NCBI GenBank assembly: GCA_012837285.1
Contig: DURJ01000075.1
Span: 10,023 to 50,022, forward strand
Direction: 5' to 3'
DNA: 40,000 nt
DNA from: Bacillota bacterium
GTDB taxonomy: Bacteria; Bacillota; DTU030; DUMP01
Made by a program: the position numbers and the translations under genes. Of this stretch, positions 1 to 16,802 are shown piece by piece. The notes under the pieces are model-generated. The model saw nothing but the letters and a program-made list of their open reading frames with translations, had not been told where the DNA came from and did no database searches. The number at the start of each line of letters is the position of its first letter. Within the stretch, counting starts at the first letter, position 1.

Positions 1-590
1 GATTTAAAGCCAGCTGCTCCAGCGGATCCACCGATACCGTCTACCACCTGTCCTTGGTCAACAGCTATTACCGAGGTAAAGGCTCCGCCCACTTCCACCA
101 GAATCAGGGCCGTATCCTGGTAATGAATCTGGTAAGTATGGGCTTGATCATAAATAGCCAAAATAGCGCAGTTGAGTTTGTCTGCAGTTCCCAGGTCAAT
201 TTTGTTTATCTTCCGCCATCTGGGCACAGTAGGCAGATGAACAACTGCCGGAGTAAAACAAAGAGGTAGTCTCCGAACCCGGGCCAAGTTGATCAAAGCT
301 TCCATCCCCGCTAGGACAGGAATATCCCGCCGCTCCCGGGCCTCTACCAAGGTCATTAGAAACAGTTCCCGCTCACCAATGTCTTGAACATCTGTCACTG
401 GCAAACCGTATCCGGACGGACCTAGAATTAGATCCACCGGCCCGGAAGCCGTTATCATTTCTAGGATCGATTCGGCCCTGTCCGCCACCTGGTCCGATGG
501 TACCGATTGGTCCAAAAACACTCGTCCTTGCTCCCAGCCGCAAAGGTCGAAACTTATGCTTCCTGGGTCGATACCCACCACCCGCGCCAT
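1..590 (-). CDS. ASKHA-fold, DUF1464-like protein (H4MPT-cluster associated), 3' partial because it runs off the window
   Basis: Not in the ORF track. My minus-strand translation from ATG 590-588 reads MARVVGIDPGSISFDLCGWEQGRVFLDQSVPSDQVADRAESILEMITASGPVDLILGPSGYGLPV... and stays open to position 1. The GIDPGS motif resembles the phosphate-1 motif of actin/Hsp70/sugar-kinase-fold proteins. The start lies 1 nt after the mptA stop. Confidence 0.6.
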   Translation of the reverse strand, partial: MARVVGIDPGSISFDLCGWEQGRVFLDQSVPSDQVADRAESILEMITASGPVDLILGPSGYGLPVTDVQDIGERELFLMTLVEARERRDIPVLAGMEALINLARVRRLPLCFTPAVVHLPTVPRWRKINKIDLGTADKLNCAILAIYDQAHTYQIHYQDTALILVEVGGAFTSVIAVDQGQVVDGIGGSAGAAGFK

Positions 591-591
591 A

Positions 592-1557
592 TCAGTTTCC
601 CGGATCGAGCCACACAGCCAAGCTGGTGGGCCAAGTTACGTGCTCGCCCAGGAACACCTCCCGACGCAGTTCTTTTAGGGTTCCGTACTTCTCCGCAAAC
701 ACATCGTAGCTATGGATTCCTTCATAGTTAAATTGTTTGGCCAACAGAAAAGCATCGTCCTCTAGTTCAGGATAGTCAATCGCCACCTGTCGCACCATTT
801 CCCGAACTACATCCTCCACAAAACGGGGCTGTCGGTGCGCAGCCACAATTACTTGGTACTCATCGGGACGTTTGAGCAGATCAAAAACCGGTGAGCTCAT
901 GGATGTTTCCACAATAGTGACCAAGTCCTGGGCCTGAACTTTCTGTTCGGTACCCAACAACAAGATGCCTTTCCCCCGCTGATTGTGCGAGGCCAACGGC
1001 ACAATAGACAGGATATCTTCTGCTTCCTGGCGGGAAAACCCCCTGGCCAAAAGGTCCTCTTGAGCCTGAGCCCGTACCATCTCCTGGGCACAAGGACAGG
1101 CGGTAAGCCCAGCAGCCTCAACGCCTACCAGTCCGCGGGTACGTCCAGGACGAGCCGCAGCGATGCCAATGAGGGTATAAATCTCTTGGGTGCTGACCCT
1201 TGATACAGGAGTCTGTTTTTGAACCGGATATTTGGCTTGTACCATCACTTCTGAGCGCAGAGCTCCCTGACTTTCTAAAACAGAAGCAGCCAAACTGTAA
1301 GTAAACGATTCAATGTCCATAATACGTTCCTTCACCACTTCGTCCACTGTTTGAATAATACCCTCACTAAAACGGGACATGTGTACGCCTGCTTGGTCGG
1401 GGTTCAAGTCCACAGACAAATCCAACTGGGAATAAAAAAGGTTTTCCTTTCCTTTGGCCCCGATGGAAATAATTTTTGTAATCCCGGTGATTCCCACTCG
1501 ATTTAGACTGACCTGGATCCGTGGCCTGCTTGCTTGGATGTCAATGTCCGTGTACAT
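592..1557 (-). CDS. mptA: GTP cyclohydrolase, FolE2/MptA type (GCYH-IB / archaeal MptA family)
   Basis: 321 aa. Motifs GVHMSRF and the Cys pair in LTACPCAQEM are typical of FolE2/MptA. The H4MPT-gene context favours an MptA-like role. Confidence 0.85.
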   Translation of the reverse strand: MYTDIDIQASRPRIQVSLNRVGITGITKIISIGAKGKENLFYSQLDLSVDLNPDQAGVHMSRFSEGIIQTVDEVVKERIMDIESFTYSLAASVLESQGALRSEVMVQAKYPVQKQTPVSRVSTQEIYTLIGIAAARPGRTRGLVGVEAAGLTACPCAQEMVRAQAQEDLLARGFSRQEAEDILSIVPLASHNQRGKGILLLGTEQKVQAQDLVTIVETSMSSPVFDLLKRPDEYQVIVAAHRQPRFVEDVVREMVRQVAIDYPELEDDAFLLAKQFNYEGIHSYDVFAEKYGTLKELRREVFLGEHVTWPTSLAVWLDPGN

Positions 1558-1612
1558 GGTCTCCCCTCCTTAGGTGGTGATCCAAAGTGTTTTAATTCGC
1601 CTTATAGACTTT

Positions 1613-2488
1613 TCAGCACCCTTTTTTTTGGCCAAAGAAAGGGCCGTATCCCTCCAGCAGCAACAGGACAAATATGGATGCTGTTATCAGGTCGGCTGTG
1701 GTCCCGGGATTTAAGCGATTACCTTCACTGCGAAGGTAATTGTCTAACGCAGCCAATTCCTGCTGTCCTGCCTGGGTATCTAAGGCGCCGACGGTCAAAA
1801 CCCTTTGCACCTGCTGGGATACTTCCTTAGCCCGCTGCCACCCTGCTTTACGGGCGATCAAGGTATCTGGTACTGCCGCCAATAGTACTAAGTAAGCTTT
1901 CACCACTGCTATACTCCAGTGGTTATATGTCCGCAGAGCTTTCTGTAAGGCCGGCACACCGATGGTAAACGTATAAGTATACCCACTGCAGTACTCAGCA
2001 GCAATACTGTCTCGGTGTCGGGCCAGTTCCATAACGGCTCTGAGAGAAACCGTCGGTTCCCCCGACACATCCTGATGGGATACTTCTCCCAGTCCCCCGG
2101 CTTTAGCTTCTCGTATAGCCAGATACACCTCCTTGGCATCAGCCACAGTCAGTTCATCTAACACTAAGGATAATCTATTTCGGAGTGACAACGCACCGGA
2201 GCTTATCAGTGCTGCTTTGGCCAACGGTGCCAGCAGTAACAAAATGCCTAGATTTGTATTGCAGGAAACCATATGCTGCGCAGCCCGCACCCCTTCCAAA
2301 ATAAGTTGCCCCACCGACAGTTCTTCGCTCCGGGAAAATACCGGCGCACTGGCCCAGGCACTGAGAATAAAGTCTTCATAAGTGGTATCATCAAAATCAT
2401 GCTGTCGGTTAACATTGCCTGGTTTCGGTGCCGTCACCTCTAGTATACAAGCTAGCTCTACTGCCCTGGCCACTTCCTTCGGCCTCAC
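1613..2488 (-). CDS. Triphosphoribosyl-dephospho-CoA synthase-like protein (CitG/MdcB family; H4MPT-linked 'orf21'-type)
   Basis: 291 aa. N-terminus ACILEVTAPKPGNVNRQHDFDDTTYEDF matches the CitG-family signature (E..A.KPG.V). Homologues are known to cluster with H4MPT genes in methylotrophs and archaea. Confidence 0.75.
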   Translation of the reverse strand: MRPKEVARAVELACILEVTAPKPGNVNRQHDFDDTTYEDFILSAWASAPVFSRSEELSVGQLILEGVRAAQHMVSCNTNLGILLLLAPLAKAALISSGALSLRNRLSLVLDELTVADAKEVYLAIREAKAGGLGEVSHQDVSGEPTVSLRAVMELARHRDSIAAEYCSGYTYTFTIGVPALQKALRTYNHWSIAVVKAYLVLLAAVPDTLIARKAGWQRAKEVSQQVQRVLTVGALDTQAGQQELAALDNYLRSEGNRLNPGTTADLITASIFVLLLLEGYGPFFGQKKGC

Positions 2489-2493
2489 CTGCT

Positions 2494-3366
2494 TCAGCTC
2501 CTTTCTACCACATAGTCAGCCAGGGCTCCGGCAATATCCACCGAGCAGACGCTCTGTAATCCCTGCCAACCCGGTATGCCGTTTACCTCTAATACAAACA
2601 GCTGTCCTTTTTGTGACCAAAGAAGATCGACACCGGCGTAATCAGCCCCCAAACAACCAGCTGCCTTAAGAGCCAACTCTTTTTCCTCAGAAGAAAGGAT
2701 CCGCCAAGTAGCCTCAGCTCCTTGGGCCAAGTTGGTCTTCCAGCTACAGCCGGCTCTAGTCATAGCTGCGATGACTTTCTTTCCTAGCACAAAGGCACGG
2801 ATATCCCAATTATCATGGGGAACATATTGCTGCAGATAGAAAACATAGCCCCCCAGATCCAAGGCCCGAAACACCCGCTGCGCCACATCAGGATCGCTGA
2901 CCCTCACCATCCCTTTTCCCAGCGACCCAAACAACGGTTTCACCACCACATCCCGGCCCAGCTCTTCGAAGGCAGCCAGAGCTTGTTGATAATCCTCCGT
3001 GACCACCGTCGGCGGTGTAGGTATCCCAGCCGCAGCTAAAACTGAGGAGGTGTAGTATTTATCCACTGCTTTTTCAATGACTGTAGGCGAATTGTAGACA
3101 CTGAGTCCCTGTTCCTTTAGCCGGCGGAGGATATCCATGCGTAAGATAATCTGCTCTAGAGAACCGCCAGGGATAGTTCGCACCACCAAAGCAGTGCAAT
3201 CTTGCAGTATTTTGTCCCCAACTGCAACCTCCAGGTTACCGGTGTCGATTCTGGCTGTCAGTTGGGTGATGGGATAGTGCAGTACCGTTGCACCGCGCTT
3301 TACCAAGGCCGCTTCCAGTTGCCGCCGATGCCACCCTTCTCCTCCACCTACAATGCCGATTTTCAC
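2494..3366 (-). CDS. mptN: RimK-family ATP-grasp ligase, tetrahydromethanopterin:alpha-L-glutamate ligase (MptN)-like
   Basis: 290 aa. ATP-grasp motifs VVKPLFGSLGKGMVRV, FYLQQYVP and YAGVDLL...LFVLEVNGIPGWQGL. Assignment rests on the RimK-like fold plus H4MPT context. Confidence 0.7.
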   Translation of the reverse strand: MKIGIVGGGEGWHRRQLEAALVKRGATVLHYPITQLTARIDTGNLEVAVGDKILQDCTALVVRTIPGGSLEQIILRMDILRRLKEQGLSVYNSPTVIEKAVDKYYTSSVLAAAGIPTPPTVVTEDYQQALAAFEELGRDVVVKPLFGSLGKGMVRVSDPDVAQRVFRALDLGGYVFYLQQYVPHDNWDIRAFVLGKKVIAAMTRAGCSWKTNLAQGAEATWRILSSEEKELALKAAGCLGADYAGVDLLWSQKGQLFVLEVNGIPGWQGLQSVCSVDIAGALADYVVERS

Positions 3367-3371
3367 TACCT

Positions 3372-4331
3372 CTACACCTCCAATAACGACGCTCGCAGCA
3401 GGTCGGCATTAATGCTGCCGGCACGATGGACCCGGCCGGTGGATTGATTGTTTATAACAACCTCTGCTGGACTGAACAGTAACGGGTCCATATCATAAAA
3501 ATCACCATAGCGCTTAAACAGATCTAGAAAAAGGGTACCGTAATCGGAAGACGCTGAGGACGGTACCCGATCTACCACCGCTTGAATTCTATCGCTGACA
3601 TCGGCTACCGTGTAGAAACACCGTCCGCCGTACAGCACCGCATCATTGGTCCGTCCGAGGGCTGTCAGATCATCCTGGGCCACCGGTGCCAAGGGACAGG
3701 TGCCAAAAGCCGCTCTAACACAATTTATGTCGTAACCTAAGGTTAGAAGCTTGTGAAGTCCGGTCTCCACCACCCGTGCCGCCACCTGCACTGAACCTAC
3801 AATACTGGCTGTAGAAGCAGCTATCAGCCATAGATGTTGAGGCTGCAAGCCACACTCTGCGGCCAGTTTACGGGCAACTTGTTCCGGAGGCAAACTGTCT
3901 GATTCTAAGATCAACACACCTCGCCTAGCTTGTTCCCGGTAAGCTAAAACCTTGAACACCTCTTCTTTGGCCGCCAGTGCTCGGGCCGGTCCAGAACCCA
4001 AAGCAGAAAAGCCTTCCCCTTGTACCGACCACCCGGCGTACTGAGAAGCCAGGCAAGCGATTGAAGGCTCCTGAACCGTAACCTGAATCCCCGGTAGCCA
4101 AAAATCATCAAAGGAAAGCAGCACAAACTCCACGCGGCCCAAACCTCCCAGACTAGCCTCGGCCACTAGCCGCCCGGCCTCTAAACTTCCGGGAGAATTT
4201 ATTCCCGCATCTAGCACCTGACTTCTGCCGGAAAAAGTAATGTGCTCGATCCCTAAAGCTTGCTGGTTGTCCACCAGGTGTTCTACCAGGACTGCAGCCT
4301 GTTCATTTAAGCAGATTCTGCCCGCTGGCAT
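3372..4331 (-). CDS. mch: Methenyl-tetrahydromethanopterin cyclohydrolase
   Basis: 319 aa, the typical Mch length. The N-terminus (LNEQAAVLVEHLVDNQQALGIE) and overall sequence are colinear with archaeal and methylotroph Mch. It overlaps the fwdC end by 25 nt. Confidence 0.9.
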   Translation of the reverse strand: MPAGRICLNEQAAVLVEHLVDNQQALGIEHITFSGRSQVLDAGINSPGSLEAGRLVAEASLGGLGRVEFVLLSFDDFWLPGIQVTVQEPSIACLASQYAGWSVQGEGFSALGSGPARALAAKEEVFKVLAYREQARRGVLILESDSLPPEQVARKLAAECGLQPQHLWLIAASTASIVGSVQVAARVVETGLHKLLTLGYDINCVRAAFGTCPLAPVAQDDLTALGRTNDAVLYGGRCFYTVADVSDRIQAVVDRVPSSASSDYGTLFLDLFKRYGDFYDMDPLLFSPAEVVINNQSTGRVHRAGSINADLLRASLLEV

Positions 4332-5125
4332 ATCAAAATCTCTCCCTTGCCCAATTCATTGGTATCGCCCAGATAGCGAGCACAGCTTCCCTCCCGAGCA
4401 GCCTGGGGCACTGAAACCCCTTGGTTTTCCAGTGTTCGCCAAAGGATGGGCAGGAAGCTAGGACGATAAATACAGCAATAGACAAAGGTTGGCAACAGAT
4501 GGGTGGCTTCAGTTAATACAATGGTGCCTCTGTTCATATTAGCTCCCGGATGGGCACCGCTCTGTCCAAAAACAACTAATGTTCCCGCCCGCATCCCGAC
4601 GCCAAGAAAATCACCGCTGGCACCGCTTACCGCTATCAGTCCTCGTCTCATTCTGGCCCCTACCTCGTTACCCACATTCCCTTTTATGATGATTGTGCCG
4701 CCAGTCATGCCTGTCCTTTCTCCCCTATAGCCGGCACCTACTAAGTGTCCCGCTGATCCTTCAACTCTAATTAATCCCCCTCTCATTTCAGCGCCCAACC
4801 AGTCAGCCACTTCTCCCCTTGCTCTAATCACTCCCCCCAACATACCGGAACCTAAATGCATGCCTACTGGGCCGTCAATGGTGAGCAGGCCCCGGTCCAT
4901 GCCTCGGCCCAAATACTTGACTCGGCCCAAATCACCCTCCACATGTAGCTGCCCGGTACACTCTGTACCGTCAATGGAAAAGAACTCCCCCAAAGGAACC
5001 TGCTCATTACCATATTGTAAAGGAAGCGCTGCCACTTCTCGAACGGGCTTGCCGAGGAGATGTGCCGGAGAAATGCTTTCAGCCTCCAAAGGAACTTCTA
5101 GTTTAGTTTTCAGCTTCAGTCGCAA
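4307..5125 (-). CDS. fwdC: Formylmethanofuran dehydrogenase subunit C (FwdC/FhcC)
   Basis: 272 aa. Carries the repetitive G-x-x-G beta-helix region (GMHLGSGMLGGVIRARGEVADWLGAEMRGGLIRVEGSAGHLVGAGYRG...) characteristic of FwdC and the GltB C-terminal domain. Confidence 0.85.
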   Translation of the reverse strand: MRLKLKTKLEVPLEAESISPAHLLGKPVREVAALPLQYGNEQVPLGEFFSIDGTECTGQLHVEGDLGRVKYLGRGMDRGLLTIDGPVGMHLGSGMLGGVIRARGEVADWLGAEMRGGLIRVEGSAGHLVGAGYRGERTGMTGGTIIIKGNVGNEVGARMRRGLIAVSGASGDFLGVGMRAGTLVVFGQSGAHPGANMNRGTIVLTEATHLLPTFVYCCIYRPSFLPILWRTLENQGVSVPQAAREGSCARYLGDTNELGKGEILICQRAESA

Positions 5126-5137
5126 GTTGGGATCACC

Positions 5138-6016
5138 TCATTCCAGCACCGACCGAAGTTGGATTTTGTACTGGCCCAGTTTACCCCCGTAGTTTCCGGC
5201 TGTTATCTGTACAATTCCTGGTTCACAAGCTGCCCTTATTCCAACCCGGGTGGCTTCTTCCACGGCTGCTAAATCGAGCCCGTCAATAACAATTTCCAGC
5301 ACACTGTTCACCTTCGAAGGTAAAGCCGACTCCACTCGTCCTCGCAGGCTTGGACAGTAAGCTGTGTTGGTTGACGCTAGCAGGGATTTATAGCGTGAGC
5401 CCACTTTGCTTCCGCTTCGGACTATACCGCCGGGAAAGGGCATGATAACACCGGCTACCTTTTCCATGGCCTCTACTGCCTTTGTTGCCGCCGCCAAAGT
5501 CAGTTGGTCATCAGTTCCTAGCAGCAGAAAATTGCCTCCGCCCACACCTTTACAGTAGCCAAAGCTCTCTTGAATTAGAAACTCCCCTTCCATTACTGGA
5601 ATCCGCCAGTAGCGCTGTCCGGCAATAACCTTGCTGGCTTGCCACCCATCGCCAAAGTAGCGCAGTTTCCCTCCTACCTGAAGCTGCCCATCACTCGCCA
5701 AGCCGTTGTAGCAAGCAGTGGTGGGACAAGTCATCACGCATTGCCCCAGTCGGGCTAAGAGCTGCTTTTCCAGTTCTTGAAAAGAAGTAGCAAAAAGTAA
5801 GACTGCCACCCCCGGTCGATCATCAGGTGTCGCGGATACTTCGCCTTCAATTCCAGCTTCGCAACCGCAGCCGATAATAGAAGTGGCGAAGCCGGTTACG
5901 CTTTGAGCCGCCTGTAAAGCCCATTTACGGTTGGCAGCTGTAATAATAAACCGGGTTCCATAAAGGGCGAAAGCTTCGGCAAAGGTATCGTGGATGTAGA
6001 CACCCTTTATGTACAC
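5138..6016 (-). CDS. ftr: Formylmethanofuran:tetrahydromethanopterin N-formyltransferase (Ftr/FhcD)
   Basis: The ORF track extends to 6070. A GTG at 6016 preceded by GGGAGGTGA gives MYIKGVYIHDTFAEAF..., which matches the canonical Ftr N-terminus (..EDTFAEAF..). This start overlaps the fwdA stop by 10 nt. Confidence 0.9.
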   Translation of the reverse strand: MYIKGVYIHDTFAEAFALYGTRFIITAANRKWALQAAQSVTGFATSIIGCGCEAGIEGEVSATPDDRPGVAVLLFATSFQELEKQLLARLGQCVMTCPTTACYNGLASDGQLQVGGKLRYFGDGWQASKVIAGQRYWRIPVMEGEFLIQESFGYCKGVGGGNFLLLGTDDQLTLAAATKAVEAMEKVAGVIMPFPGGIVRSGSKVGSRYKSLLASTNTAYCPSLRGRVESALPSKVNSVLEIVIDGLDLAAVEEATRVGIRAACEPGIVQITAGNYGGKLGQYKIQLRSVLE

Positions 6017-7632
6017 GAAATCACCTCCCAGGGGAAATAACGCTGTTTTTCCACTGGGTAATTGGCCCACGAGACGCTATAGACCTGCTCAAATAGCGGT
6101 GCTAACCATGAATCTACCGCCTGTCGCTGACACAGTTCCGGTAACAGAGTTTTGCCAACGCAGCTTCGTATCACCTCTCCCTTGTTAACTACCACTTGCC
6201 CTTCTTTGATTACATATTCCGGGTAAGCAAACATTTCTTGGTAATTGGCTTGGGGCCGGTAAATGGCAATATCGGCCTGAGCACCGATACCAAGATGGCC
6301 TTTGTGTCTGAGACCCAAAGCCCGTGCCGGTCCGGCCCTGGTGGTTATAGCTATCTCCGCCAACGTATACTCCCGGGACAAGTCTGAAACATTGGTCCTT
6401 TGCTGTGCTCTTTTGTTCAGCTTCGCTGCCACCTCTTCCCGGTAACTCCGATCCATTAGGAGTCTGATGATCCAAGGATAGGCGGTGAAAGGACCGGCGT
6501 TAGGATGATCAGTAGTCAAGTACACCTGCCAAGGGTTGTCAATAAGTAGAAAAAGTTCCAAACCAATGAGCCACTGCATCGCCCCGGCATAGCTCTGTTC
6601 ATGGTAAACCAAAGGCACTACCCCGGAACCGGTCTCTCCTTCGATGTCATTGTTCACCCATCGTTCGCCAGTAAGTTGATGCAGTTGGTATTGCAAGGGT
6701 CCGTCAGCGGTCATGGTGACGGCTGGGCCAAAGATCACTTGACCTACATCCACAGTCAAATTAGGATGGCTGTTGACAACAGCAGCCAGTGCTTCCGCCC
6801 CGGAAGCAAACGGCAAACCGTTAGCTTTCCGGTAACCACTAAACTGAAGATGGGTTATGTGTAACCGACGTCCAGCGGCCAGGGCCATAGTAGCCAACGC
6901 CACCTCATCGCTACCAGCCTGACCGAGACCATTGCAGTGCAGGTGAACGGCATGGGGTAGTCTTAGTTCCTCATTGATGTCCAGTAACGTGTCGATAATC
7001 TGTCTGGGAGTAACACCGTAACCGTACACTTCATCATCCAGATGTCGGACATTGCTCCCCCGTTTCCAGTTGGCAACACCACCGGGGTTTACTACTTTGA
7101 TCCCATAACCACCGGTGGCCTCAAGCAGCCAGGTTATGTAGTCCAGTAGTCGCTCTTTCTCTCGCTGACGAATCAAATTTAAAATGAAGTGGTTGTTACC
7201 CATCAAAACCAAAGCGCCCTTATCAACTATAGGTGTGTCCGCCAGTTCTTCATGAACATGGCGCGCCTTCAGTGGTGGCATCGCTGCCTCCACCACAGTA
7301 GTATAGCCCAGCTTGGCATAACGATAGCCAGTGACAAAAGTAGAGGGAACCGTAGCGCCGACACCGCTTCTGGTGCTATGGGTACGACGCACTGGATCTC
7401 GACGGTGATCTTCTGGGCACAAGATCCGCCCGGTATTAACTTTCGGACCGGCGATGTGGGTATGAATGTCGATCCCGCCTGGCATAGCTATTAACCCAGC
7501 GGCAGGAATGACAGTGTCAACGGTGCCCTGCTCCCCGGAAACAATTCTACCATTCTGCACAAAGATGCTCTTCGCCTGTCCGTGGATCCCATTGCGGGGA
7601 TCATAGACACAGGCACCTTCGATCATGAGCAT
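6007..7632 (-). CDS. fwdA: Formylmethanofuran dehydrogenase subunit A (amidohydrolase; FwdA/FhcA)
   Basis: 541 aa. Amidohydrolase metal motif GGIDIHTHIAGPKVN. Length and colinearity fit FwdA. Confidence 0.9.
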   Translation of the reverse strand: MLMIEGACVYDPRNGIHGQAKSIFVQNGRIVSGEQGTVDTVIPAAGLIAMPGGIDIHTHIAGPKVNTGRILCPEDHRRDPVRRTHSTRSGVGATVPSTFVTGYRYAKLGYTTVVEAAMPPLKARHVHEELADTPIVDKGALVLMGNNHFILNLIRQREKERLLDYITWLLEATGGYGIKVVNPGGVANWKRGSNVRHLDDEVYGYGVTPRQIIDTLLDINEELRLPHAVHLHCNGLGQAGSDEVALATMALAAGRRLHITHLQFSGYRKANGLPFASGAEALAAVVNSHPNLTVDVGQVIFGPAVTMTADGPLQYQLHQLTGERWVNNDIEGETGSGVVPLVYHEQSYAGAMQWLIGLELFLLIDNPWQVYLTTDHPNAGPFTAYPWIIRLLMDRSYREEVAAKLNKRAQQRTNVSDLSREYTLAEIAITTRAGPARALGLRHKGHLGIGAQADIAIYRPQANYQEMFAYPEYVIKEGQVVVNKGEVIRSCVGKTLLPELCQRQAVDSWLAPLFEQVYSVSWANYPVEKQRYFPWEVISCT

Positions 7633-8894: not shown

Positions 8895-9228
8895 TGGAGT
8901 CCCTCCCCACCCAGGCCTGGAGTCCTTTGTAGCCAGGCATCCCACTCCCGTTTGTTCGTGCATCGGTCAGGCGGTTAGCTTCTGGACCGTAGGGAACAAA
9001 GGCCAGATTATGAGGCAGATCAGCTAGGCGACAGCTAAATATTCCTTCTCCAAACGCGGTGCCCACCCGGACCAAATCTCCTGCCTGCAGCCCCAATTGC
9101 TCTAGAACGGCAGCGCCTAGTTCAACCACGGCAGTTTCCTTTCGGTATAGCCCTGACTCCTTACCTTGCATCAAGCCTCGGCCCTGGTTGATGGTTCTGC
9201 CGGTAATTAGAATTACCTCAACCTTCAC
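8881..9228 (-). CDS. fwdD: Formylmethanofuran dehydrogenase subunit D (molybdopterin-dinucleotide-binding beta-barrel)
   Basis: 115 aa. ILITGRTINQGRGLMQGK...LQAGDLVRV...PYGPEANRL is typical of FwdD/FmdD. Lies directly upstream of, and overlapping, fwdB. Confidence 0.8.
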   Translation of the reverse strand: MKVEVILITGRTINQGRGLMQGKESGLYRKETAVVELGAAVLEQLGLQAGDLVRVGTAFGEGIFSCRLADLPHNLAFVPYGPEANRLTDARTNGSGMPGYKGLQAWVGRDSSGCS

Positions 9229-10408
9229 CGGGGCCGCCCCCTTTCCTATTGCTGGGAATCACTTGGGCTAATACCCAGTATTGCTGTTCACGAAGGGCCT
9301 CCATACATTCCTCCCGCGTATCTCCCCGGGCTAGAACGGTGCAAATCGGAGAGTGGGCCGATATTTTTTCACCCGGATGAGGAATGTCACGGATCCCGGC
9401 TCGGAACCAGCCACCGGTATCGCCGCAGCTTAAATCCCATGGGGCGTAGACGACAGCTTTCCCCCAATAGCCCTGCCGCTGGCATATGGCAGGCAAAACG
9501 GCCTGTTCTACCCCAAAGCCCTGACAGGCCTTGACATGCAACGAAAACAAGTCGTAGCCATAAGCAGCAGCAAAAAGCTCCATAGATGCCGAGTAGCGGG
9601 GATTCACCTCCAGAAACATCGGTTCGTCGTCAGCAGTGAGAAGAAAATCAATACCATTTAATCCCTTCAAACCAAATTCCACGGTGACGAGGTTAATCAG
9701 CTTCTTTAACCAAGTCCACAAGCCAATCGGGAACTCACTCCATCGATCCAGCCATAACGGTACGATGTTGCCTGAATAAATAAATTCTGATGCTCCAAAA
9801 TCCCGGCTTCCACATAATTGTTCACTTATGCCTAAAACGTAAGCTTTCTGACCATTGGCAACAAAGGAGACGGAGGCCGGCATACTGGCCCGATACTCCT
9901 GCAGCAGGTAGTCTTCGGACAGATGCACCTCCTCCGCCGCCCAGTTAATGTTGGTTCCACCGCCGGACTTTCTGGGTTTTAACAGCCACCGTCCCGAAGG
10001 CACCGGCCCCTGCCATTGATACAACGTCCGCGGGTAAGCGAACCTGTTAGTCTCCAAGAACCGGTGAAGTTGTTCCCAATCTCTGACCCGCCGTAGGGTA
10101 GAGCTGTCGTTACCCAACAGCTCTCGGCCGGTTGTCAATTCAGCCACCAAATCAGGCTCATCATCCAGGCCTGAAGTATAGGCCAAAGTATCATAACTCA
10201 ACTTGGTGGCGGACGTGGCCAAGGCTTGGGCTGAAAAAGATGCCTGTCCAAAATCCCGCCACAGTGAATAACTCTGCCCCCATTGGTTTTGATCATAGTC
10301 ACCAAAGTAATCCAAGGTTAGGAGCTCATAGCTGCTGCCTTCCTTGCTCTTGGCAACAGCTTCAGCCAAACCCCGAGTGCTAAAACCCAGCACCAACAAC
10401 TTCTGCAA
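9218..10408 (-). CDS. ATP-grasp enzyme associated with H4MPT/methanofuran pathways (orf5/orf17- or MfnD-like)
   Basis: 396 aa. ATP-grasp core: WLLKPRKSGGGTNI, LLQEY, GLNGIDFLL...MFLEVNPRYSASMELF. Overlaps the fwdD start by 11 nt. Confidence 0.65.
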   Translation of the reverse strand: MQKLLVLGFSTRGLAEAVAKSKEGSSYELLTLDYFGDYDQNQWGQSYSLWRDFGQASFSAQALATSATKLSYDTLAYTSGLDDEPDLVAELTTGRELLGNDSSTLRRVRDWEQLHRFLETNRFAYPRTLYQWQGPVPSGRWLLKPRKSGGGTNINWAAEEVHLSEDYLLQEYRASMPASVSFVANGQKAYVLGISEQLCGSRDFGASEFIYSGNIVPLWLDRWSEFPIGLWTWLKKLINLVTVEFGLKGLNGIDFLLTADDEPMFLEVNPRYSASMELFAAAYGYDLFSLHVKACQGFGVEQAVLPAICQRQGYWGKAVVYAPWDLSCGDTGGWFRAGIRDIPHPGEKISAHSPICTVLARGDTREECMEALREQQYWVLAQVIPSNRKGGGPGEG

Positions 10409-10420
10409 GACCGTTTCCTC

Positions 10421-11281
10421 CTAGCTGTCCTGGCCTAAACTATATACTTCTTGAGCATCCAGGAACACATCGTTTCTAGTAAACAGATGGTCCACAGCAG
10501 TCTTGTGAATCTTCATCTTGAGTCCGCCGATGCCCAGGGCGCCAAAACATATTTTCCCCTGACGCCTCTTCCCATCATCGCTCAGTTTCAGGCCAGTAAC
10601 ACCGCCAGGGGGCACAGCATTAAGGTCTGCTACAACTCTCAAGGCCGCGGCTCCAGCCCAGGTTTCCTCGGTCAAAAGAACTGCGCCTAAGGCACCGGTA
10701 GTGACCACAATGGCCTTATCGGCTAAGGCTGCACCTGCAGCCTGTTGATCATTAGGATTAAGCTTCAACGGTTCTACGACCACCTTATATTGTTCCGCTA
10801 AAGTCTGACAGGCCGCTTCGGCCCGAGCCATGGATCGGGAAGTCAAAGTTACCTGGCCGCCGCCCAAAGACAACAAGGCTGCCACTCTGAGTCCTACCGG
10901 TCCCGTTCCCGCCATTACCAAAGCCTTCTGCCCAGCTACGGGATAAGCACGATTAATTTTGATAACCGCTGCTGCCGCTGTAGTGTTACAGCCATTAGCA
11001 TCCATTAACACCGACACTCGAACCGAACCGAAAAAAGTCTTTTGCACAGTCGTTAACACTTCCTGGGCAGTTGCCACTTGTGAACCGCCGATGAATATGG
11101 CCGTATTTTTTAGATCTTGGTTGCTGCGGGTAAACATTGCTCCGTAGACAAAATCGCGTACATTCTCTGCCGTCACCCCACCGTAGGCCAAGACATGGTC
11201 GACTCCGGCATCGTAGGCCACAACAGTGTCAAAAACACTGGGCATGGAGTCTGTATCCAGTTGAATGAGTAGTTTCTTCAC
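10421..11281 (-). CDS. mtdA: NAD(P)-dependent methylene-tetrahydromethanopterin dehydrogenase (MtdA/MtdB family)
   Basis: 286 aa with a GTG start and GGGGAGGTG Shine-Dalgarno sequence. KKLLIQLDTDSMPSVFDTVVAYDAGVDH...TAIFIGG...FFGSVRVSVLMDANGCNTTAAAAV...GTGPVG...FGALGIGGLKMKIH is colinear with Methylobacterium MtdA as I recall it. I cannot separate MtdA from MtdB by eye. Confidence 0.9.
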   Translation of the reverse strand: MKKLLIQLDTDSMPSVFDTVVAYDAGVDHVLAYGGVTAENVRDFVYGAMFTRSNQDLKNTAIFIGGSQVATAQEVLTTVQKTFFGSVRVSVLMDANGCNTTAAAAVIKINRAYPVAGQKALVMAGTGPVGLRVAALLSLGGGQVTLTSRSMARAEAACQTLAEQYKVVVEPLKLNPNDQQAAGAALADKAIVVTTGALGAVLLTEETWAGAAALRVVADLNAVPPGGVTGLKLSDDGKRRQGKICFGALGIGGLKMKIHKTAVDHLFTRNDVFLDAQEVYSLGQDS

Positions 11282-11488: not shown

Positions 11489-12976
11489 CTATACAGTATC
11501 ATGCCAGCTACAGTGGCTATGGCGTTTAGTCAAGATGCAGACAGCACAGTCCTTGCAAACTCGGGCTGGAGAACCGGGGACTTCAGGGTTCAGGGCAATA
11601 ATATTGGTCATCAAAGTGGCGGTTACCGGCTCGCTGGTCAGGAGACAAGGGAAGTCGGCCAGCCGCATAAGAGCGGAGAATCGTACCGTAATACCACAGG
11701 CCGGATAGGTGTAACGCTGAGGATTAGCCAGCACCTCATTCTTCTCGATGGGATCTAAATCAACTTTGACACCTCTCACCTTGCCGCCATTGCCAATAGG
11801 TTCATCTTCCAGAATATTGCTCCCCCGGTGGATCATATCCATAAAGTCTACATTGTGGAGTTCAGCAGCAGCCCCACGGTTCGGATATAGTTGGACATAG
11901 TTGTAGAAACGTTTCGTTAACAGATCGATCACCATCGGCGCAGTGAATCCATCTTTCTCCAAGATGTAAGCTGCCCCACAGGCAGTGGAACCGGTAGCTA
12001 CACTCAAAACATCATAGGCGCTGTCGTAGCCCTGTTCCAGCCCTCTCTGGAGAGTGTTGGCCAAAACATCGGTCTCAGCTTCCATAATGGCCATAATTAC
12101 ATCGTCCTTGGCCATATTGAACATCGATTGGGCAATATGGTGAGCCACATCGCCTACACAGTAAGCTGGAACAGTAACAATGTTACCATAATGAACCCCT
12201 GCTTCTACTGCCTTAAGAATGAGGGGCTTCATCCGCTCTTTGTATTTGAGCATATACTCCTTAACATCAAAGGACTGATGACCACCATCGGTCATAAGCT
12301 TCGTCTGAGCTGCGATCGGCTCCCGATAGACCATTTGCAGCATCTCAATCTCGTCCCGAACAGCTTGGGCAGTGGTCTTGCCCGCCTCAATGGAATCGGC
12401 AAAGGCGGCCCCGATCCCATAAGAGGTGTTCATTCCCCACGACTTGGCCGACAAAATAGCCTTTTTATGAGCCGTTGGAATATCTACGCCTTTGAGAATC
12501 TCGTTTACCACTGAAGTGGTGGAACCAGGACAGAAGGCAAAGTCCACCACGCAAGTGGGTCCATAGAACCCGCCATAACGTCTGACCGCCTCTCGTCCAA
12601 CTAAGGCCTCGTTCGTTGCAATGGCGTCGATAAACTTGCTCATAGACTCTTTGAAACCAGTGTCTTCCTCAACCAGAATTTCGAGAATAGGGGGAGTCTG
12701 GTAGTGCTCGACAAAAGGATCGTCTTCAGGTCGGACGTACTCAGTCAATCCTTTGAGGATTTCGTAATGGGCATTGACAGACTGAACATGGAGGTCAATG
12801 ACCTCAGGGGACTGCCCCTCCCCAACGGTCATACCGTTGACGGCATCCACATAGGGCTGGGCGTCACCAATGGTAAAGGTCTGACCCCGCTTTTCCTTAA
12901 TTACCCCGATATCTGCCCGCTGAGCCGATAAGGCTTCTTTAATCATCTTTTCATGGATGGTACTAGACACGGACAA
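11489..12976 (-). CDS. Uncharacterised 495-aa Cys-rich protein with no family recognised; candidate metalloenzyme linked to the C1 module
   Basis: Long clean ORF with GTG start 12976 and AAAGGGGA 7 nt upstream. Recurrent Cys contexts: GPTCVVDFAFCPGS, PAYCVGDVAHH, GSTACGAAY, YPACG. C-terminal CKDCAVC-x8-C cluster. No hydrophobic signal or TM segment is evident. Confidence 0.8.
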   Translation of the reverse strand: MSVSSTIHEKMIKEALSAQRADIGVIKEKRGQTFTIGDAQPYVDAVNGMTVGEGQSPEVIDLHVQSVNAHYEILKGLTEYVRPEDDPFVEHYQTPPILEILVEEDTGFKESMSKFIDAIATNEALVGREAVRRYGGFYGPTCVVDFAFCPGSTTSVVNEILKGVDIPTAHKKAILSAKSWGMNTSYGIGAAFADSIEAGKTTAQAVRDEIEMLQMVYREPIAAQTKLMTDGGHQSFDVKEYMLKYKERMKPLILKAVEAGVHYGNIVTVPAYCVGDVAHHIAQSMFNMAKDDVIMAIMEAETDVLANTLQRGLEQGYDSAYDVLSVATGSTACGAAYILEKDGFTAPMVIDLLTKRFYNYVQLYPNRGAAAELHNVDFMDMIHRGSNILEDEPIGNGGKVRGVKVDLDPIEKNEVLANPQRYTYPACGITVRFSALMRLADFPCLLTSEPVTATLMTNIIALNPEVPGSPARVCKDCAVCILTKRHSHCSWHDTV

Positions 12977-13086
12977 TTCCCCTTTCTTTTTTCTTTTTTG
13001 CCCAAACCATACTTACCAGTAAACAGTGTGCCGAAACTTCAACCTCACCTCCCCTGTTTTTGGCACAATTCTTACTTGTTTCTATT

Positions 13087-13102
13087 TGCAATAATTGTGC
13101 CA
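13087..13102 (-). promoter_or_regulatory. Sigma-54 (RpoN) -24/-12 promoter for the 495-aa gene
   Basis: The minus strand reads TGGCACAATTATTGCA, an exact match to TGGCAC-N5-TTGCA. It lies about 110 nt upstream of GTG 12976 and next to the sigma-54 activator gene. Confidence 0.75.
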
Positions 13103-13286
13103 GGCTTGGCAATATTGTGCCTACCCTACGGTCAGTGAGGCTTGTGGCTATTTCTGCAGCGGAAAATACTGTTCAGGATGGTGTTTCACAATGATACGGT
13201 TCTGGTATACAGTTTGGTTATTTATGGTTTTAGAGTAGAGAGGGAGAATGGTGGACAAGATTTGTTTCATTCCGGCACATGATCCA

Positions 13287-15242
13287 CTATGATGCATCTT
13301 CCCGAAAAGTTTTCAGTTCAATCGCATAGCGCTTTAGTTTCCGATACAAAGTGGTACGACCGATTCCCAGAAAGGCTGCCACTTTGCTTACATTTCCTTG
13401 ATAAACCTCCAGTGCCTGCACAATGGCCATTCGTTCCACCTCGGCTAAGCTGTGACCTTTTTCGGCCATGGCTGGCCTCATGGTATGCGACCGGGGCACA
13501 CAAATCCGCGCCGGAAAATGTTCCAGCTGTAAAGTTCCGTCCTCTGCCAGGTGTAATGCCTGTTCAATGGCATTTTGTAGTTCCCGAACATTGCCGGGCC
13601 AGTGATACTCTAATAGAACTTGTTTAATAGACGGGTTCATAACCACCTGCTCATAACCTAATTGCCCGGAAACACGTCGCAGAAAATAGCGCGCCAGCAA
13701 GAGGACATCATCGCCTCGCTCCCGCAACGGCGGAATAAACAGATTAACCACGCTGAGACGATGAAACAGATCTAAACGAAAGTGTCCTTCATTGACTAGC
13801 TTAGCAATGTCCTTGTTGGTGGCGGCAATAAATCTAACTTGAATTGGAACTGGCGTATGCCCTCCGATCCGAATCACTTGCTTTTCTTCCAGCACTCGAA
13901 GCAAACTGGCCTGCGTCTCCAGCGGGATGTCGCCAATTTCGTCCAGAAACAAAGTACCGCCGCTGGCTAATTCAAACTTTCCCGGTCGCCCCCCTCGTTT
14001 TGCCCCGGTAAAGGCGCCCTCTTCATAGCCAAACAGCTCGCTTTCCACTAAGTCGCGCGGCAAAGCGGCACAATTGATCGCTACAAAAGGCCCGTCCCGT
14101 CGAGGACTGGCATTGTGGATTGCTTGAGCAAATAGATCCTTCCCAGTACCGCTTTCTCCCATGATCAACAAGGTGGAATCTGTGCGGGCTACCCGTTTGG
14201 CGATACCGATACTCTCAGTGAACTTTGGATCTTCTCCAATTAAGTCCTCAAATTCGAACCGAGCCTGGGCGCCGGCCATGCGCGTCACCAATCGTTGTAC
14301 CGACTTCATCTCTCGGCAAGTCAGCACCACCCCGATAACTCCGCCCCGTTTGGAACAAACAGGCTGACTGGAAACAGTGAGGCGTAACCGCCGGCCCTGA
14401 AAATCTACCGCCAACTCCCGGTCATTAAAACCTTCTCGACCAGTCTTAATCATCCGTAATAATGGAAAAGAGTTGCAGAAAACTTCTTCCACGGGCTTCC
14501 CCAAACATTCCACCGGATCGAGACCGAAAATTCTCCCAGCTACAGTATTCATTTGGCTAACGATGCCCTTATTATCGATAAAGATAAGGCCCTCAGAAAT
14601 CGATTGTAACACCGACACCAGCCGATCCCAGGTCTGTTCCAATTTCAGCTCCATTTGCACCGCTGCCGTCAGTGCTATCAACATAGCAAGAGTATGAAAA
14701 CAAAGCGTTCTCTGGTAACCGGCCATGCCGAGGACTCCTATTAATTCACCCTCCGGGTCAAACAACGGAGCAGCGGCGCACGACAACCCTTGCATCATAT
14801 TAAGATAGTGTTCGGTCCCAGTAACCAGGCTCGGGCTTTTCTCTGCGATAGCCAGGCTGATTGCATTAGTTCCCAACTCTTCTTCTCGCCACTGAGTTCC
14901 CACCCTGAGGGCAGTCTCTGGGGGAGACAATCGGTTCAGGTCTCCGGTAGCGGCGACAATGCATCCCTCTGGATCACAGAAGAATGCCGCTCCATCTAAA
15001 TCACAAAACCCACTGATCTTCTCCAGGAAGGGTCGGCTAACGCGCACCACTGAAGCGGATGCCTCCAGTCGTTCCTTCAGCTCTCGTCCCTGTAACTGAG
15101 TCCACCTAACTTCTTGAAAGGGATCCAGCCCCCGCCGTCGGCACCTTTCCCAAGAAGCCATGATCTCAGGGCGGATTCCCTCCACCGGTATTCCCTGCCC
15201 AACAAAACGTTCCCAACAACTTTTTATCTGATTCTGAACCAT
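13287..15242 (-). CDS. Sigma-54-dependent transcriptional activator (AcoR-like N-terminus/GAF, PAS, AAA+, Fis-type HTH)
   Basis: 651 aa. AcoR-type start (SCWERFV...[19 protein letters not shown]). AAA+ motifs GESGTGKD, the GAFTGA loop ([12 protein letters not shown]) and ELFGYE. C-terminal [25 protein letters not shown]. Confidence 0.9.
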
Positions 15243-15244
15243 GG

Positions 15245-16231
15245 TTAATCATCCTTTTCCCCGGTCACCGAAGCTCCCTGGTTTCGTGGCGACAAACAAC
15301 GCACCTTAGCCGGTACCTCAATCTGCTTCAGGTACGTTTTCAACTCCTGTTGAATTTCCTCCCCCAAAGCCCGACACTCAACCACTCCGTACAAGGTCGG
15401 TCCCCAGGAACTTTGCCCGGCGCCGGTGGCTCCGGCATTGAGGAGCAGACGCACAATCCCTTCAGCTGCAGGATGGCTGTACAATCCCCCTTGGATCGGA
15501 GCAAACTGTTTGCCAATGGTCCACTGAATCTCTGTCAGAGCCTGCCCAAAAGCTTCAATGTCTCTTTCCAGTAAGGCCGGCAGGAGCTGCATAACTAACA
15601 GGCGACAAACAAGCCCCACATCTTCCGGCGGTATTGGCGGCATGGCCCGAAACGCTTGCCATTCCCGGTGCCCACTGTAACCCGCTGTGCTGGCCGGAGT
15701 TACTACTAGAAAACACCAATCTGAAGGAAAGTCGTGTCTAAAAATGAGCGGGGGTACGTATCCTTTCAGGTCTGCCCGGTCAAATTCTCGCGGAATTCCT
15801 CCGTCCACTACAAAACCCCCGCTCTGGAAAATGCCAATCCCCACCCCTGATTGGTGTCCCCGACCGCTGATCCGAGCTAATTCCGCCACCGAATAATCCT
15901 GATCGTAGAGGTGAAACAAAGCCGCGCCCACAGCCAGGGCTAATTGGGTACCCGACCCCAACCCCACATGTGATGGGATCGCCTCTTGCACCACCAGGCG
16001 GGCCCCTCCTTGAACCCCCATTTCAGCCAGGAACGTCCTAGCTAAAGACAGGACCCTTTCCTTTTCCCAGCCGTTCACACTCAAGTTTGAAGCTATTTCG
16101 GCCTGAATTACGGTTTTTGGTCCTTCTAAAGCTACCCCCAGCCCACCATAAAGCCGTCCCAGGGAACCGTTCAGGTCTATTTGTCCTAAATGCAGTCGGC
16201 AGGGCGTCTCAACTTTAAGCATTGGTACCAT
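15245..16231 (-). CDS. mptG: Beta-ribofuranosylaminobenzene 5'-phosphate (beta-RFAP) synthase, GHMP-kinase fold (H4MPT biosynthesis)
   Basis: 328 aa. TPCRLHLGQIDLNGSLGRLYGGLGVAL and the GHMP motif PSHVGLGSGTQLALAV are typical of beta-RFAP synthase. Confidence 0.85.
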   Translation of the reverse strand: MVPMLKVETPCRLHLGQIDLNGSLGRLYGGLGVALEGPKTVIQAEIASNLSVNGWEKERVLSLARTFLAEMGVQGGARLVVQEAIPSHVGLGSGTQLALAVGAALFHLYDQDYSVAELARISGRGHQSGVGIGIFQSGGFVVDGGIPREFDRADLKGYVPPLIFRHDFPSDWCFLVVTPASTAGYSGHREWQAFRAMPPIPPEDVGLVCRLLVMQLLPALLERDIEAFGQALTEIQWTIGKQFAPIQGGLYSHPAAEGIVRLLLNAGATGAGQSSWGPTLYGVVECRALGEEIQQELKTYLKQIEVPAKVRCLSPRNQGASVTGEKDD

Positions 16232-16802
16232 CCACCTTTCCTCGAAACTGCCGTAAGTACCGAAGAAGAAAGCTCAAGGCTTCTCTTTCCCGTGGTCCAC
16301 CGGTTTTAGTAATAATAGCAGCCAGCCGATCTAGTTCTTGGTTAAGAAAAGAGTGTTTATACAAAAAAGGGCGAGAAGCTAGGATTGCTCCCTCCACCAA
16401 AGCCGCTTGGGCGCGATTGAATCCACTGACAACTCCACTTTCTCCCTCCTGTACAACCCGACAAGTGAACAGGGCTCGTTCTTCCCGATCCTCCATCCTT
16501 TCCACTTCAATTTCCCACCAGCTACAATCTACCAGCACAGTTCCCGGCACTCGTTCCGCCGGAACGCCCGGCAGAACCGGATCACCTACAGCCGTGTAGA
16601 CGAAAAGCGACCCATCGTAACTTAAATTTACTACTCCGACGCCGGTCGAGAGCAGGTTCTGATAGGTATGAGTTGTTTTATACGGCCGCACTTGCAGAGC
16701 CTGCTCCGTCGGCAACAAAGTAATACCCATGGGGGCAGGATTCATCTGTCCCTGCGGGCTAACCGTGGTAACAATGGACTCAATGATCATGGCCTGATTC
16801 AC
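16215..16802 (-). CDS. DUF447-family protein (FMN-binding split-barrel-like; H4MPT-linked 'orf19'-type)
   Basis: 195 aa. N-terminus IIESIVTTVSPQGQMNPAPMGI plus the C-terminal helical part fit DUF447. Overlaps the mptG start. Confidence 0.7.
   Translation of the reverse strand: MNQAMIIESIVTTVSPQGQMNPAPMGITLLPTEQALQVRPYKTTHTYQNLLSTGVGVVNLSYDGSLFVYTAVGDPVLPGVPAERVPGTVLVDCSWWEIEVERMEDREERALFTCRVVQEGESGVVSGFNRAQAALVEGAILASRPFLYKHSFLNQELDRLAAIITKTGGPREREALSFLLRYLRQFRGKVDGTNA

Follow-up and report, generated by a model that had tools for sequence, protein, structure and literature searches.

Methanofuran and methanopterin chemistry is usually taught as a trait of methanogens and aerobic methylotrophs. 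Two described systems frame the locus considered here, namely formaldehyde oxidation with tetrahydromethanopterin (H4MPT) in Methylorubrum extorquens (Fae, MtdA/MtdB, Mch and FhcABCD) and the FwdABCDFG complex of Methanothermobacter wolfeii (PDB 5T5I). Firmicutes have been listed among the bacteria with H4MPT/methanofuran genes, with fwdD and Afp retained; Archaea, Synergistetes, Firmicutes and NC10 have kept fwdD, which Proteobacteria and Planctomycetes have lost (Chistoserdova 2016, PMC5020050). In Actinobacteria, an fwdDBA-ftr-fwdC operon has been reported that is without fwdEFG and retains the Fe-S motif and Cys118 (Merino et al. 2020, PMC7325909, with Adam et al. 2019 cited for the evolutionary background). 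Here we describe a cluster of this kind in a 40,000-nt stretch of DNA (the window), positions 10023-50022 of contig C6 (~50 kb) of genome G000, from an uncultured Bacillota-type anaerobe lineage. Such clusters have thus already been published, and the present module is unusually complete. The initial annotation of the stretch had taken the pathway to be little characterised in Gram-positive anaerobes, a view that stands only in part: given the Firmicutes entries and the actinobacterial operon just cited, the ground is less uncharted. We put forward, with a probability of roughly 0.6, that the locus is a resident, sigma-54-inducible catabolic module whose most likely function is to oxidise methylene-H4MPT to CO2 on a methanopterin-type carrier that it would itself provide.

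With the M. extorquens pathway the locus shares an MtdA-type dehydrogenase, Mch and an operon-embedded Ftr. The cofactor genes are likewise clustered (beta-ribofuranosylaminobenzene 5'-phosphate (beta-RFAP) synthase, CitG-like, RimK-like, ATP-grasp, DUF447, DUF1464 and Afp), and flux is likely oxidative in both. In contrast, no Fae was found here, the Fe-S and metal-pterin site of FwdB is kept and FwdD is present, so that the end product should be CO2 and low-potential electrons, not formate; moreover, the host lives anaerobically and has [FeFe]-hydrogenases, and control is of the kind exerted by sigma-54 and an enhancer-binding protein (EBP). FwdA, FwdB, FwdC and FwdD are common to this cluster and the M. 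wolfeii complex. However, FwdF/G and FwdE are missing from the cluster, ftr lies within the operon and the partner dehydrogenase is NADP-type, not F420- or H2-dependent; Mer was searched for and not found. The Actinobacteria of the Hakuba serpentinite have the same fwdDBA-ftr-fwdC order, likewise without fwdEFG and with the Cys ligand and Fe-S motif kept, but reportedly lack the methanopterin synthesis set (PMC7325909), which is complete and linked here. Unlike in the Hakuba and Firmicutes surveys, a sigma-54 EBP and DUF2193 head the module, and no acetyl-CoA synthase match was obtained. Retention of fwdD and Afp is as in the H4MPT genes of Firmicutes and Synergistetes (PMC5020050). Finally, DUF2193 belongs to the same family as the protein of the methanogen DUF2193-MIP pair (PMC12375889). 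In Moorella sp. Hama-1 and in genome G195, DUF2193 is followed by an AqpM orthologue, whereas G000 has neither a MIP gene nor the DUF2180 zinc-ribbon partner, and its DUF2193 is followed directly by mtd and fwd genes behind a sigma-54 promoter.

In the proposed mechanism, the MtdA-type dehydrogenase would pass a hydride from methylene-H4MPT to NAD(P)+, Mch would open methenyl-H4MPT to formyl-H4MPT, and a Fwd-Ftr complex encoded by fwdD-B-A-ftr-fwdC would move the formyl group to a methanofuran-type cofactor. FwdA would hydrolyse the formyl group and the W/Mo-pterin site of FwdBD would oxidise the formate to CO2, the electrons passing through the single [4Fe-4S] cluster of FwdB to a low-potential acceptor, e.g., ferredoxin, and ending as H2 through [FeFe]-hydrogenases. 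The direction of flux, the formation of this complex and its electron acceptor are points that we infer. In effect, the module would be the redox-active counterpart of the methylotroph Fhc complex. The genes for all enzymes from methylene-H4MPT to CO2 are present and intact. With NAD(P), the oxidation of methylene-H4MPT is favourable, as is known from the thermodynamics of MtdA/MtdB in methylotrophs. The oxidative direction is suggested by the NADP-type Mtd, by the sigma-54/EBP control and by the outcome of profile searches of G000, whose positive controls matched in methanogens: no match was obtained in G000 for Mer (TIGR03555), for CofH of F420 synthesis (TIGR03551) or for acetyl-CoA synthase (CdhC, PF03598). 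The genome-wide search for F420 genes suggested at the outset thus returned no CofH.

The type of each enzyme, archaeal or bacterial, was judged by bit scores against solved structures. FwdB reaches 432 bits with M. wolfeii FwdB (5t5i_B) but only 57 bits with FhcB of M. extorquens (6s6y_B), and in the alignment to 5t5i_B the CPxCGxLCDD...C Fe-S motif, SICHGP (Cys118-His119) and PMRGH (Arg288) are all kept. Since FwdB retains the Fe-S motif and the Cys/His/Arg active site, the complex is predicted to be a redox-active Fwd, as opposed to the hydrolytic Fhc of methylotrophs. For FwdA, the score is 502 bits with archaeal FwdA versus 381 with FhcA, its D-x-H-x-H metal motif being aligned, and Mch finds its nearest match in the M. 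kandleri enzyme (1qlm, 294 bits). The best solved relative of Ftr is FhcD of M. extorquens (317 bits, with archaeal Ftr at 290-296 bits). Mtd matches the NADP-dependent MtdA of M. extorquens (1lu9, 6tge) over its full length at 251 bits, and by this similarity is of the bacterial MtdA type, not the F420-dependent archaeal Mtd. Because FwdA and FwdB are methanogen-like, Ftr FhcD-like and Mtd MtdA-like, the module appears as a mosaic of a redox-competent Fwd core, an operon-embedded Ftr as in Fhc and a bacterial pyridine-nucleotide dehydrogenase. The label 'archaeal-type' first given to the module therefore suits FwdA and FwdB, closest to the methanogen enzymes, but neither Mtd nor Ftr. Among the best 120 database relatives of FwdB (54-70% identity) every named one is bacterial, from Firmicutes/Bacillota, Clostridia, Chloroflexi/Anaerolineae and Methylomirabilales. 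Two MoeA genes, for pterin cofactor synthesis, are found in G000.

The sigma-54 set is complete, with a -24/-12 promoter, an adjacent AAA+ EBP and rpoN. The promoter is the only exact copy of TGGCAC-N5-TTGC in the 40-kb window and lies on the minus strand between the EBP gene and DUF2193, which is the first gene behind it and starts ~110 nt downstream. An equivalent site occupies the same gap in G010, from another family of the same class, and in G169 (Clostridiales bacterium PH28_bin88, same phylum as the host), while in G205, which has no DUF2193, it falls between the EBP and the ATP-grasp-ftr-fwd genes. The EBP gene is directly upstream of DUF2193 in 7/7 DUF2193-bearing genomes of the phylum sample, and the EBP is presumed to be the regulator of the module. 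The promoter, the EBP, rpoN and this recurrence in G010, G169 and G205 therefore fit a substrate-induced catabolic operon. Scans for sigma-70 promoters and terminators stayed at chance level, with none in the DUF2193-mtd gap. Sigma-54/EBP control of such a module was not found in our literature search.

The module is resident and native to the chromosome. G000 is a metagenome-assembled genome (MAG) of 204 contigs, with estimates of 95% completeness and 2% contamination, in a class of 16 species representatives. The best named relatives of its DnaE (~50% identity) are Bacillota, namely Selenomonas, Dichloromethanomonas and Phascolarctobacterium, in agreement with the Firmicute-type host initially proposed. 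The right flank holds thioesterase, proA, proB, pyk, dnaE, sepF, aminotransferase, nrdJ, ylbF, LysM-BsuPI, queG and pckA genes, among which SepF, YlbF, the pyruvate kinase with a PEP-utilizer tail and LysM-BsuPI are as first described; on the left, past the module, an HTH-cupin regulator precedes the his operon. Measured against thirty-five 20-kb genome pieces, the composition of the module is like that of the core, as had been judged by eye (GC 0.519 vs 0.521 +/- 0.017; tetranucleotide correlation 0.90 vs 0.93 +/- 0.03). The module genes are single-copy in G000, with the EBP family as the exception. The module flanks are syntenic with same-family genomes, and an independent metagenome contig, LSQX01272618.1, has the identical arrangement including the same junctions. 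We take this contig to be from a digester metagenome.

Families were called by Pfam and NCBIfam profile scans, with scores compared to curated cut-offs. In the window, 16 consecutive minus-strand open reading frames (ORFs) at 1-16802 were all assigned in this way (table 1). The initial annotation had counted these genes correctly, and the scans bear out each family that it named in place, from FwdD, FwdB, FwdA, Ftr, FwdC, Mch and Mtd to the H4MPT-biosynthesis set; it named 14/16 genes, and the remaining two are the sigma-54 EBP and DUF2193. NCBIfam equivalog or subfamily cut-offs are exceeded by Mch, FwdA, FwdB, FwdC, Ftr, beta-RFAP synthase and MptA, while the CitG-like, ATP-grasp, DUF447 and DUF1464 genes are above Pfam thresholds. 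The 16 genes are the part within the window; the whole module is longer, extending ~3.2 kb beyond the left window edge (10 kb of leftward DNA was read) to a total of 20 genes and ~20 kb. This leftward part comprises the remainder of DUF1464, FolB and FolK, then convergent MptH-like and AfpA-like genes, the last of which is what the search for dmrX/afpA brought up just outside the window.

Table 1. Features of the methanopterin module of G000 (window coordinates unless stated; profile scores in bits)
Feature	Position	Strand	Evidence
DUF447 (FMN-binding split-barrel type)	16215..16802	-	DUF447_N 70.6 bits, DUF447_C 41.1 bits (Pfam)
beta-RFAP synthase (MptG type)	15245..16231	-	TIGR00144 219 bits (cut-off 114); NF040726 251 (below cut-off 328)
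sigma-54 EBP, GAF-PAS-AAA+-HTH_8	13287..15242	-	Sigma54_activat 226 bits, plus GAF, PAS, HTH_8
sigma-54 promoter, -24/-12 element TGGCACAATTATTGC	13088..13102	-	exact TGGCAC-N5-TTGC
DUF2193	11489..12976	-	PF09959 831 bits, profile positions 2-498
NAD(P)-type methylene-H4MPT dehydrogenase, MtdA/MtdB family	10421..11281	-	Mpt_N 110 bits; MtdA structures 251 bits
ATP-grasp ligase	9218..10408	-	ATP-grasp_3 71.9 bits; weak MfnD match, E 6e-5
FwdD, molybdopterin-dinucleotide-binding cap subunit	8881..9228	-	Molydop_binding 42.6 bits (cut-off 26.8); best NCBIfam match FwdD 75 bits, below cut-off
FwdB, catalytic W/Mo-pterin subunit	7623..8963	-	TIGR03129 539 bits (cut-off 328)
FwdA, amidohydrolase subunit acting on formyl-methanofuran	6007..7632	-	TIGR03121 708 bits (cut-off 393)
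Ftr, formylmethanofuran:H4MPT formyltransferase	5138..6070	-	TIGR03119 425 bits (cut-off 293)
FwdC, GXGXG beta-helix subunit	4307..5125	-	TIGR03122 259 bits (cut-off 131)
Mch, methenyl-H4MPT cyclohydrolase	3372..4331	-	TIGR03120 363 bits (cut-off 229)
RimK-family glutamate ligase, MptN-like	2494..3366	-	TIGR00768 203 bits (cut-off 143)
CitG-like triphosphoribosyl transferase homologue	1613..2488	-	Pfam CitG 246 bits
MptA, Fe(II)-type GTP cyclohydrolase of methanopterin synthesis	592..1557	-	TIGR00294 288 bits (cut-off 220)
DUF1464 (ASKHA-fold), cut by window edge	1..590	-	full gene 361 aa, L084:9527-10612, DUF1464 311 bits
FolB	left of window (FolB/FolK at L084:8666-9530)		TIGR00525 120 bits
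FolK	left of window (FolB/FolK at L084:8666-9530)		TIGR01498 152 bits
MptH-like dihydropteroate-synthase homologue	left of window, convergent		TIGR00284 217 bits, best match, below equivalog cut-off
AfpA/DmrX-like flavoprotein	left of window, convergent		TIGR02700 107 bits, best match, below equivalog cut-off

The Fwd subunits A, B, C and D are all encoded together in the cluster, with ftr placed between fwdA and fwdC. The start of FwdB is probably nearer 8894, the database copy (P0121) being 423 aa long. A methanopterin island set is also present, with predicted products MptA, beta-RFAP synthase, MptH-like, Afp/Dmr-type and MptN-type. The beta-RFAP synthase reaction is the first committed step in methanopterin synthesis. 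DUF447 is the first gene of the cofactor sub-operon and has the same place in G010, G169 and G352 (the closed genome of the cultured Moorella sp. Hama-1, also of the host phylum). The best specific match of the RimK-family protein is MptN (NF040720), with 260 bits under a cut-off of 350. The CitG-like protein has weak matches only to the true CitG/MdcB equivalogs; as a conserved member of H4MPT islands, its gene has a putative role there. In every full module the ATP-grasp gene sits between mtd and fwdD, and the substrate of the ligase may be a cofactor side chain.

Two features outside the coding part of the module were also observed. Between the thioesterase gene and DUF447, a palindromic segment (window 16914-16983) gives sub-threshold Rfam matches on both strands (P37, 29 bits vs gathering 50), the only hit of an Rfam search of window 1-17600 at E <= 1, and is probably a hairpin or terminator at the module border. 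At the contig end, window 36664-40000 is an AT-rich patch (GC 0.39-0.42 vs 0.52 for the genome) whose ORFs have no Pfam match; C6:46000-50024 (window ~35978-40000) has a tetranucleotide correlation with the genome of just 0.32. This patch looks like foreign or accessory DNA.

The distribution of the module is patchy. The full gene block was found in 8/401 sampled genomes of the phylum (G000, G003, G010, G100, G169, G205, G352 and G364) and in 3/16 genomes of the class. The order mtd-ATPgrasp-fwdDBA-ftr-fwdC-mch-rimK-citG is kept in G010, G169, G352 and G100, and G205 and G364 retain the fwd-ftr-fwdC-mch core. In G010 the 18-gene order is identical, the proteins are 52-78% identical, and the convergent MptH-like and AfpA-like pair recurs. 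DnaE identity to G000 is 74% in G003, 59% in G010, 58% in G352, 53% in G169 and 49% in G100; since module identity falls in the same order, long residence with losses would fit better than recent transfer. In another family, a variant of the module (L123 and L135 of G205:C43; L126 of G364:C65) has a second ftr beside fwdD; this variant cluster is without mtd and DUF2193, and the sigma-54 promoter and EBP come directly before its ATP-grasp-ftr-fwd genes.

The chromosomal slot, as followed by synteny on the DnaE side, is variable among relatives rather than marked by a clean insertion scar, and no mobile-element genes were seen around it. In the closed genome G004 of the same family (L216, G004:C1:2147000-2166950), the thioesterase and the HTH-cupin regulator bracket other genes, namely a two-component system (histidine kinase and response regulator) and genes for an ABC ATPase and a HAD hydrolase. 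In G003 (L218, G003:C228) proA directly abuts hisZ and the module is on other short contigs, and in G001 (L217, G001:C81) there is no proAB between pyk and thioesterase. HisZ was tried as an empty-site probe, and no close HisZ was found in the same-genus genomes.

The MCH family as such is more widespread, with matches in 29/401 genomes. That all 29 represent H4MPT modules was considered and rejected, as ~20 are lone paralogues in unrelated contexts. These lone copies (~20/401 genomes, often 2-5 copies each) are 30-40% identical to the Mch of the window and have no Fwd, Ftr or Mtd gene nearby, which suggests a fold with a methanopterin-independent function. In G228 (L113, G228:C1:562000-581900) two MCH copies, at 9469-10440 and 14614-15582, flank SDR, GntR regulator and 2-oxoacid dehydrogenase E1alpha/E1beta/E2 genes; similar loci are L111, L114-L116 and L118.

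Several observations weigh against an oxidative catabolic module. This reading does not account for C1 (one-carbon) entry without Fae, nor for the source of methanofuran. No match to Fae (PF08714) was obtained in G000 or in the seven other module genomes, including the closed G352, and no C1 entry enzyme was found; as Fae is also missing from these seven, its absence is a trait of this module kind. MfnB (PF04476) and an MfnF-like gene (TIGR03123) had no match in G000, G003, G010, G205 and G364, which bears on the cofactor supply for Fwd and Ftr. The absence of fae, mer and mfn genes, first noted for the window, accordingly extends to the genome for fae, mer, mfnB and the mfnF-like gene. No ferredoxin-type gene (FwdF/FwdG) occurs within the 20-gene cluster or the clusters of G010, G169, G352 and G100, with no genome-wide search made. 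In addition, Fwd is reversible and no sequence feature fixes the direction of flux, a matter that the initial annotation had rightly left open. Finally, in a MAG of 204 contigs, estimated 95% complete, absences are no proof, although the related genomes back them.

The missing methanofuran genes also divide the module genomes. Because mfnB and TIGR03123 are both in-cluster in G100, G169 and G352 and missing from the five genomes named above, there are two module sub-types, with and without mfn genes, and G000 is of the sub-type without recognisable methanofuran synthesis. A tblastn search with the in-cluster AA_kinase-like (possible MfnE), MfnF-like and MfnB proteins gave nothing in G000. Uptake of methanofuran from methanogen neighbours is our guess. 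A split into such sub-types was not found in the literature search. Other partner genes could be placed in G000, which encodes formyl-tetrahydrofolate (formyl-THF) synthetase, GcvT and rpoN (contig C3). [FeFe]-hydrogenases are found in 8/8 module genomes, with five matches in G000. No FolP-type gene was found in G000, where the sole Pterin_bind match is in a 799-aa frame on contig C198, and FolB and FolK have no second copy; FolB and FolK therefore probably serve methanopterin synthesis. The organism may be without de novo folate synthesis despite its formyl-THF synthetase and GcvT.

In an alternative scenario the same enzymes would run reductively, CO2 being fixed to formyl-methanofuran and reduced to methylene-H4MPT for biosynthetic C1 units, as a truncated archaeal-type Wood-Ljungdahl methyl branch. 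FwdB does retain a complete CO2-reducing site, and Moorella sp. Hama-1 as well as many metagenome operons include an AqpM-type channel, through which a small neutral solute, e.g., CO2, could enter. Nevertheless, we regard reductive use as unlikely: G000 gave no match for Mer, CofH or acetyl-CoA synthase, Mtd is NADP-type and the reduction of methenyl-H4MPT by NAD(P)H is established to be unfavourable, formyl-THF synthetase is present, so the folate C1 route is at least partly there, and the sigma-54/EBP control resembles inducible catabolism. Somewhat less probable still is a role like that of Fhc, in which formyl-methanofuran is only hydrolysed and formate is released as in methylotrophic Proteobacteria, the metal site being vestigial. 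Such a role is difficult to reconcile with a FwdB that keeps the Fe-S motif, the Cys-His pair and the Arg and scores just 57 bits against FhcB, with the retention of FwdD, lost in Proteobacteria and Planctomycetes (PMC5020050), and with the conservation of these FwdB/FwdD features across families at 54-70% identity. It would account for ftr lying inside the fwd operon, like fhcD in fhcCDAB, for an Ftr that scores best with FhcD (317 bits) and for the lack of FwdF/G electron-transfer subunits encoded nearby.

A module that is idle or decaying, non-functional without methanofuran synthesis and in the course of being lost, would be in keeping with the patchy occurrence (3/16 class genomes, 8/401 phylum genomes) and with mfnB and the MfnF-like gene not being found in five MAGs of two lineages. 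However, all 20 genes are open with catalytic residues kept, two families of the class share the identical order at 52-78% protein identity, the sigma-54 promoter has been kept, and module divergence tracks DnaE divergence, as expected under selection; we consider a relic quite improbable. Least credible of all, to the point of being nearly dismissed, is an artefact of assembly or binning that joined the module of another organism, e.g., an archaeon, to a Firmicute contig. The MAG is indeed fragmented into 204 contigs with 2% estimated contamination, but one 50-kb contig has the his operon on one side and proAB, pyk, dnaE, sepF, nrdJ and pckA on the other. In GC content and tetranucleotides the module agrees with the genome, its flanks show synteny with genomes of the family, LSQX01272618.1 has the same junctions and the closed chromosome of Moorella sp. 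Hama-1 holds the same block. The check for a chimeric contig, raised at the outset as the way in which the module could prove foreign, thus speaks against a chimera: housekeeping genes stand on both sides, composition is native and the gene order recurs in another family.

The head of the operon provides additional clues. DUF2193 is the best-conserved protein of the cluster (78% identity in G010, 85% in G003), with 63-85% identity across bacterial and archaeal homologues, including 63-73% in Methanoperedens, ANME-2, Methanosarcinales and Methanobacterium. Three cysteines of the tail, C472, C475 and C487, do not vary in an alignment of 30 homologues (A1). The only biochemical study, on the protein of M. 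voltae, reports one [4Fe-4S] cluster per subunit (Dieter et al. 2025, PMC12375889); there, 91% of methanogen DUF2193 homologues adjoin a MIP channel gene, and methanopterin is unmentioned. DUF2193 of G000 is a predicted member of this [4Fe-4S]-binding family, the M. voltae protein (PMC12375889) being the only member known to bind a cluster. Its AlphaFold model has a pLDDT of 84 and a pTM of 0.88. By sequence no solved relative was found in the PDB, Foldseek gave no match at E <= 0.001 and the Atlas none, and the best VIA-align result (Z 5.2 over 48 residues) is no convincing structural relative.

Gene context ties DUF2193 to the module. It occurs in 7/401 phylum genomes, 6/7 with the full module adjoining. 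Among 46 metagenome loci that reach 4 kb or more downstream of DUF2193, 22 have module genes (mtd-ATPgrasp-fwdDBA-ftr) directly behind, 24 have AqpM only and none has neither; AqpM intervenes between DUF2193 and the module genes in 11 of those 22. The order in Moorella sp. Hama-1 is EBP, DUF2193, MIP, beta-RFAP synthase, AfpA-like, MptH-like, DUF447, mtd, ATP-grasp, fwdDBA-ftr-fwdC and mch. The MIP protein of this genome (L131:2806-3552) is an AqpM orthologue, with 309 bits against A. fulgidus AqpM (3ne2) and at most 82 bits against ordinary aquaporins; the AqpM of G195 (L133:4249-5046), directly behind DUF2193, is 74% identical to it, and the EBP-DUF2193-AqpM unit of G195 has no methanopterin genes on its contig. 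No MIP/AqpM channel gene was found in G000. Upstream of DUF2193, the only conserved block found in the metagenome loci is a 65-67-aa zinc-ribbon gene (MQCYVCAK..., two CxxC pairs, DUF2180-like) at ~100-300 nt, seen in nine of them (L145, L148, L149, L151, L169, L177, L191, L205 and L208). Methanopterin or fwd genes lie downstream in 6/9, the other three being too short to tell, and the zinc-ribbon gene is absent from G000 and from the Bacillota loci. A link of DUF2193/AqpM to the module was not found in the literature search. On the strength of this context (6/7 phylum genomes, 22/46 metagenome loci), we offer as a speculative and rather doubtful possibility that DUF2193, usually accompanied by an AqpM-type channel, might supply the front end that bacterial Fwd-type methanopterin operons lack. 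It might take in and activate a small neutral C1 solute (formaldehyde/methanediol), as Fae does, or serve Fwd as a redox partner, while the GAF-PAS sigma-54 activator would sense the substrate.

The locus is a clean, complete and chromosomally native methanopterin cluster in an anaerobic Firmicute-type lineage. Combining a redox Fwd, an operon Ftr and an NADP-type dehydrogenase, it stands between archaeal Fwd and bacterial Fhc and bears on the movement of H4MPT branches between domains. What part DUF2193/AqpM plays in heading these operons is a puzzle. A Fwd/Ftr system without recognisable methanofuran synthesis suggests cross-feeding of the cofactor from methanogens. If the oxidative reading is true, formaldehyde-level carbon would yield CO2, NAD(P)H and, as H2, low-potential electrons in a fermenting or syntrophic anaerobe, and such organisms would represent an unrecognised C1 sink in anaerobic habitats.

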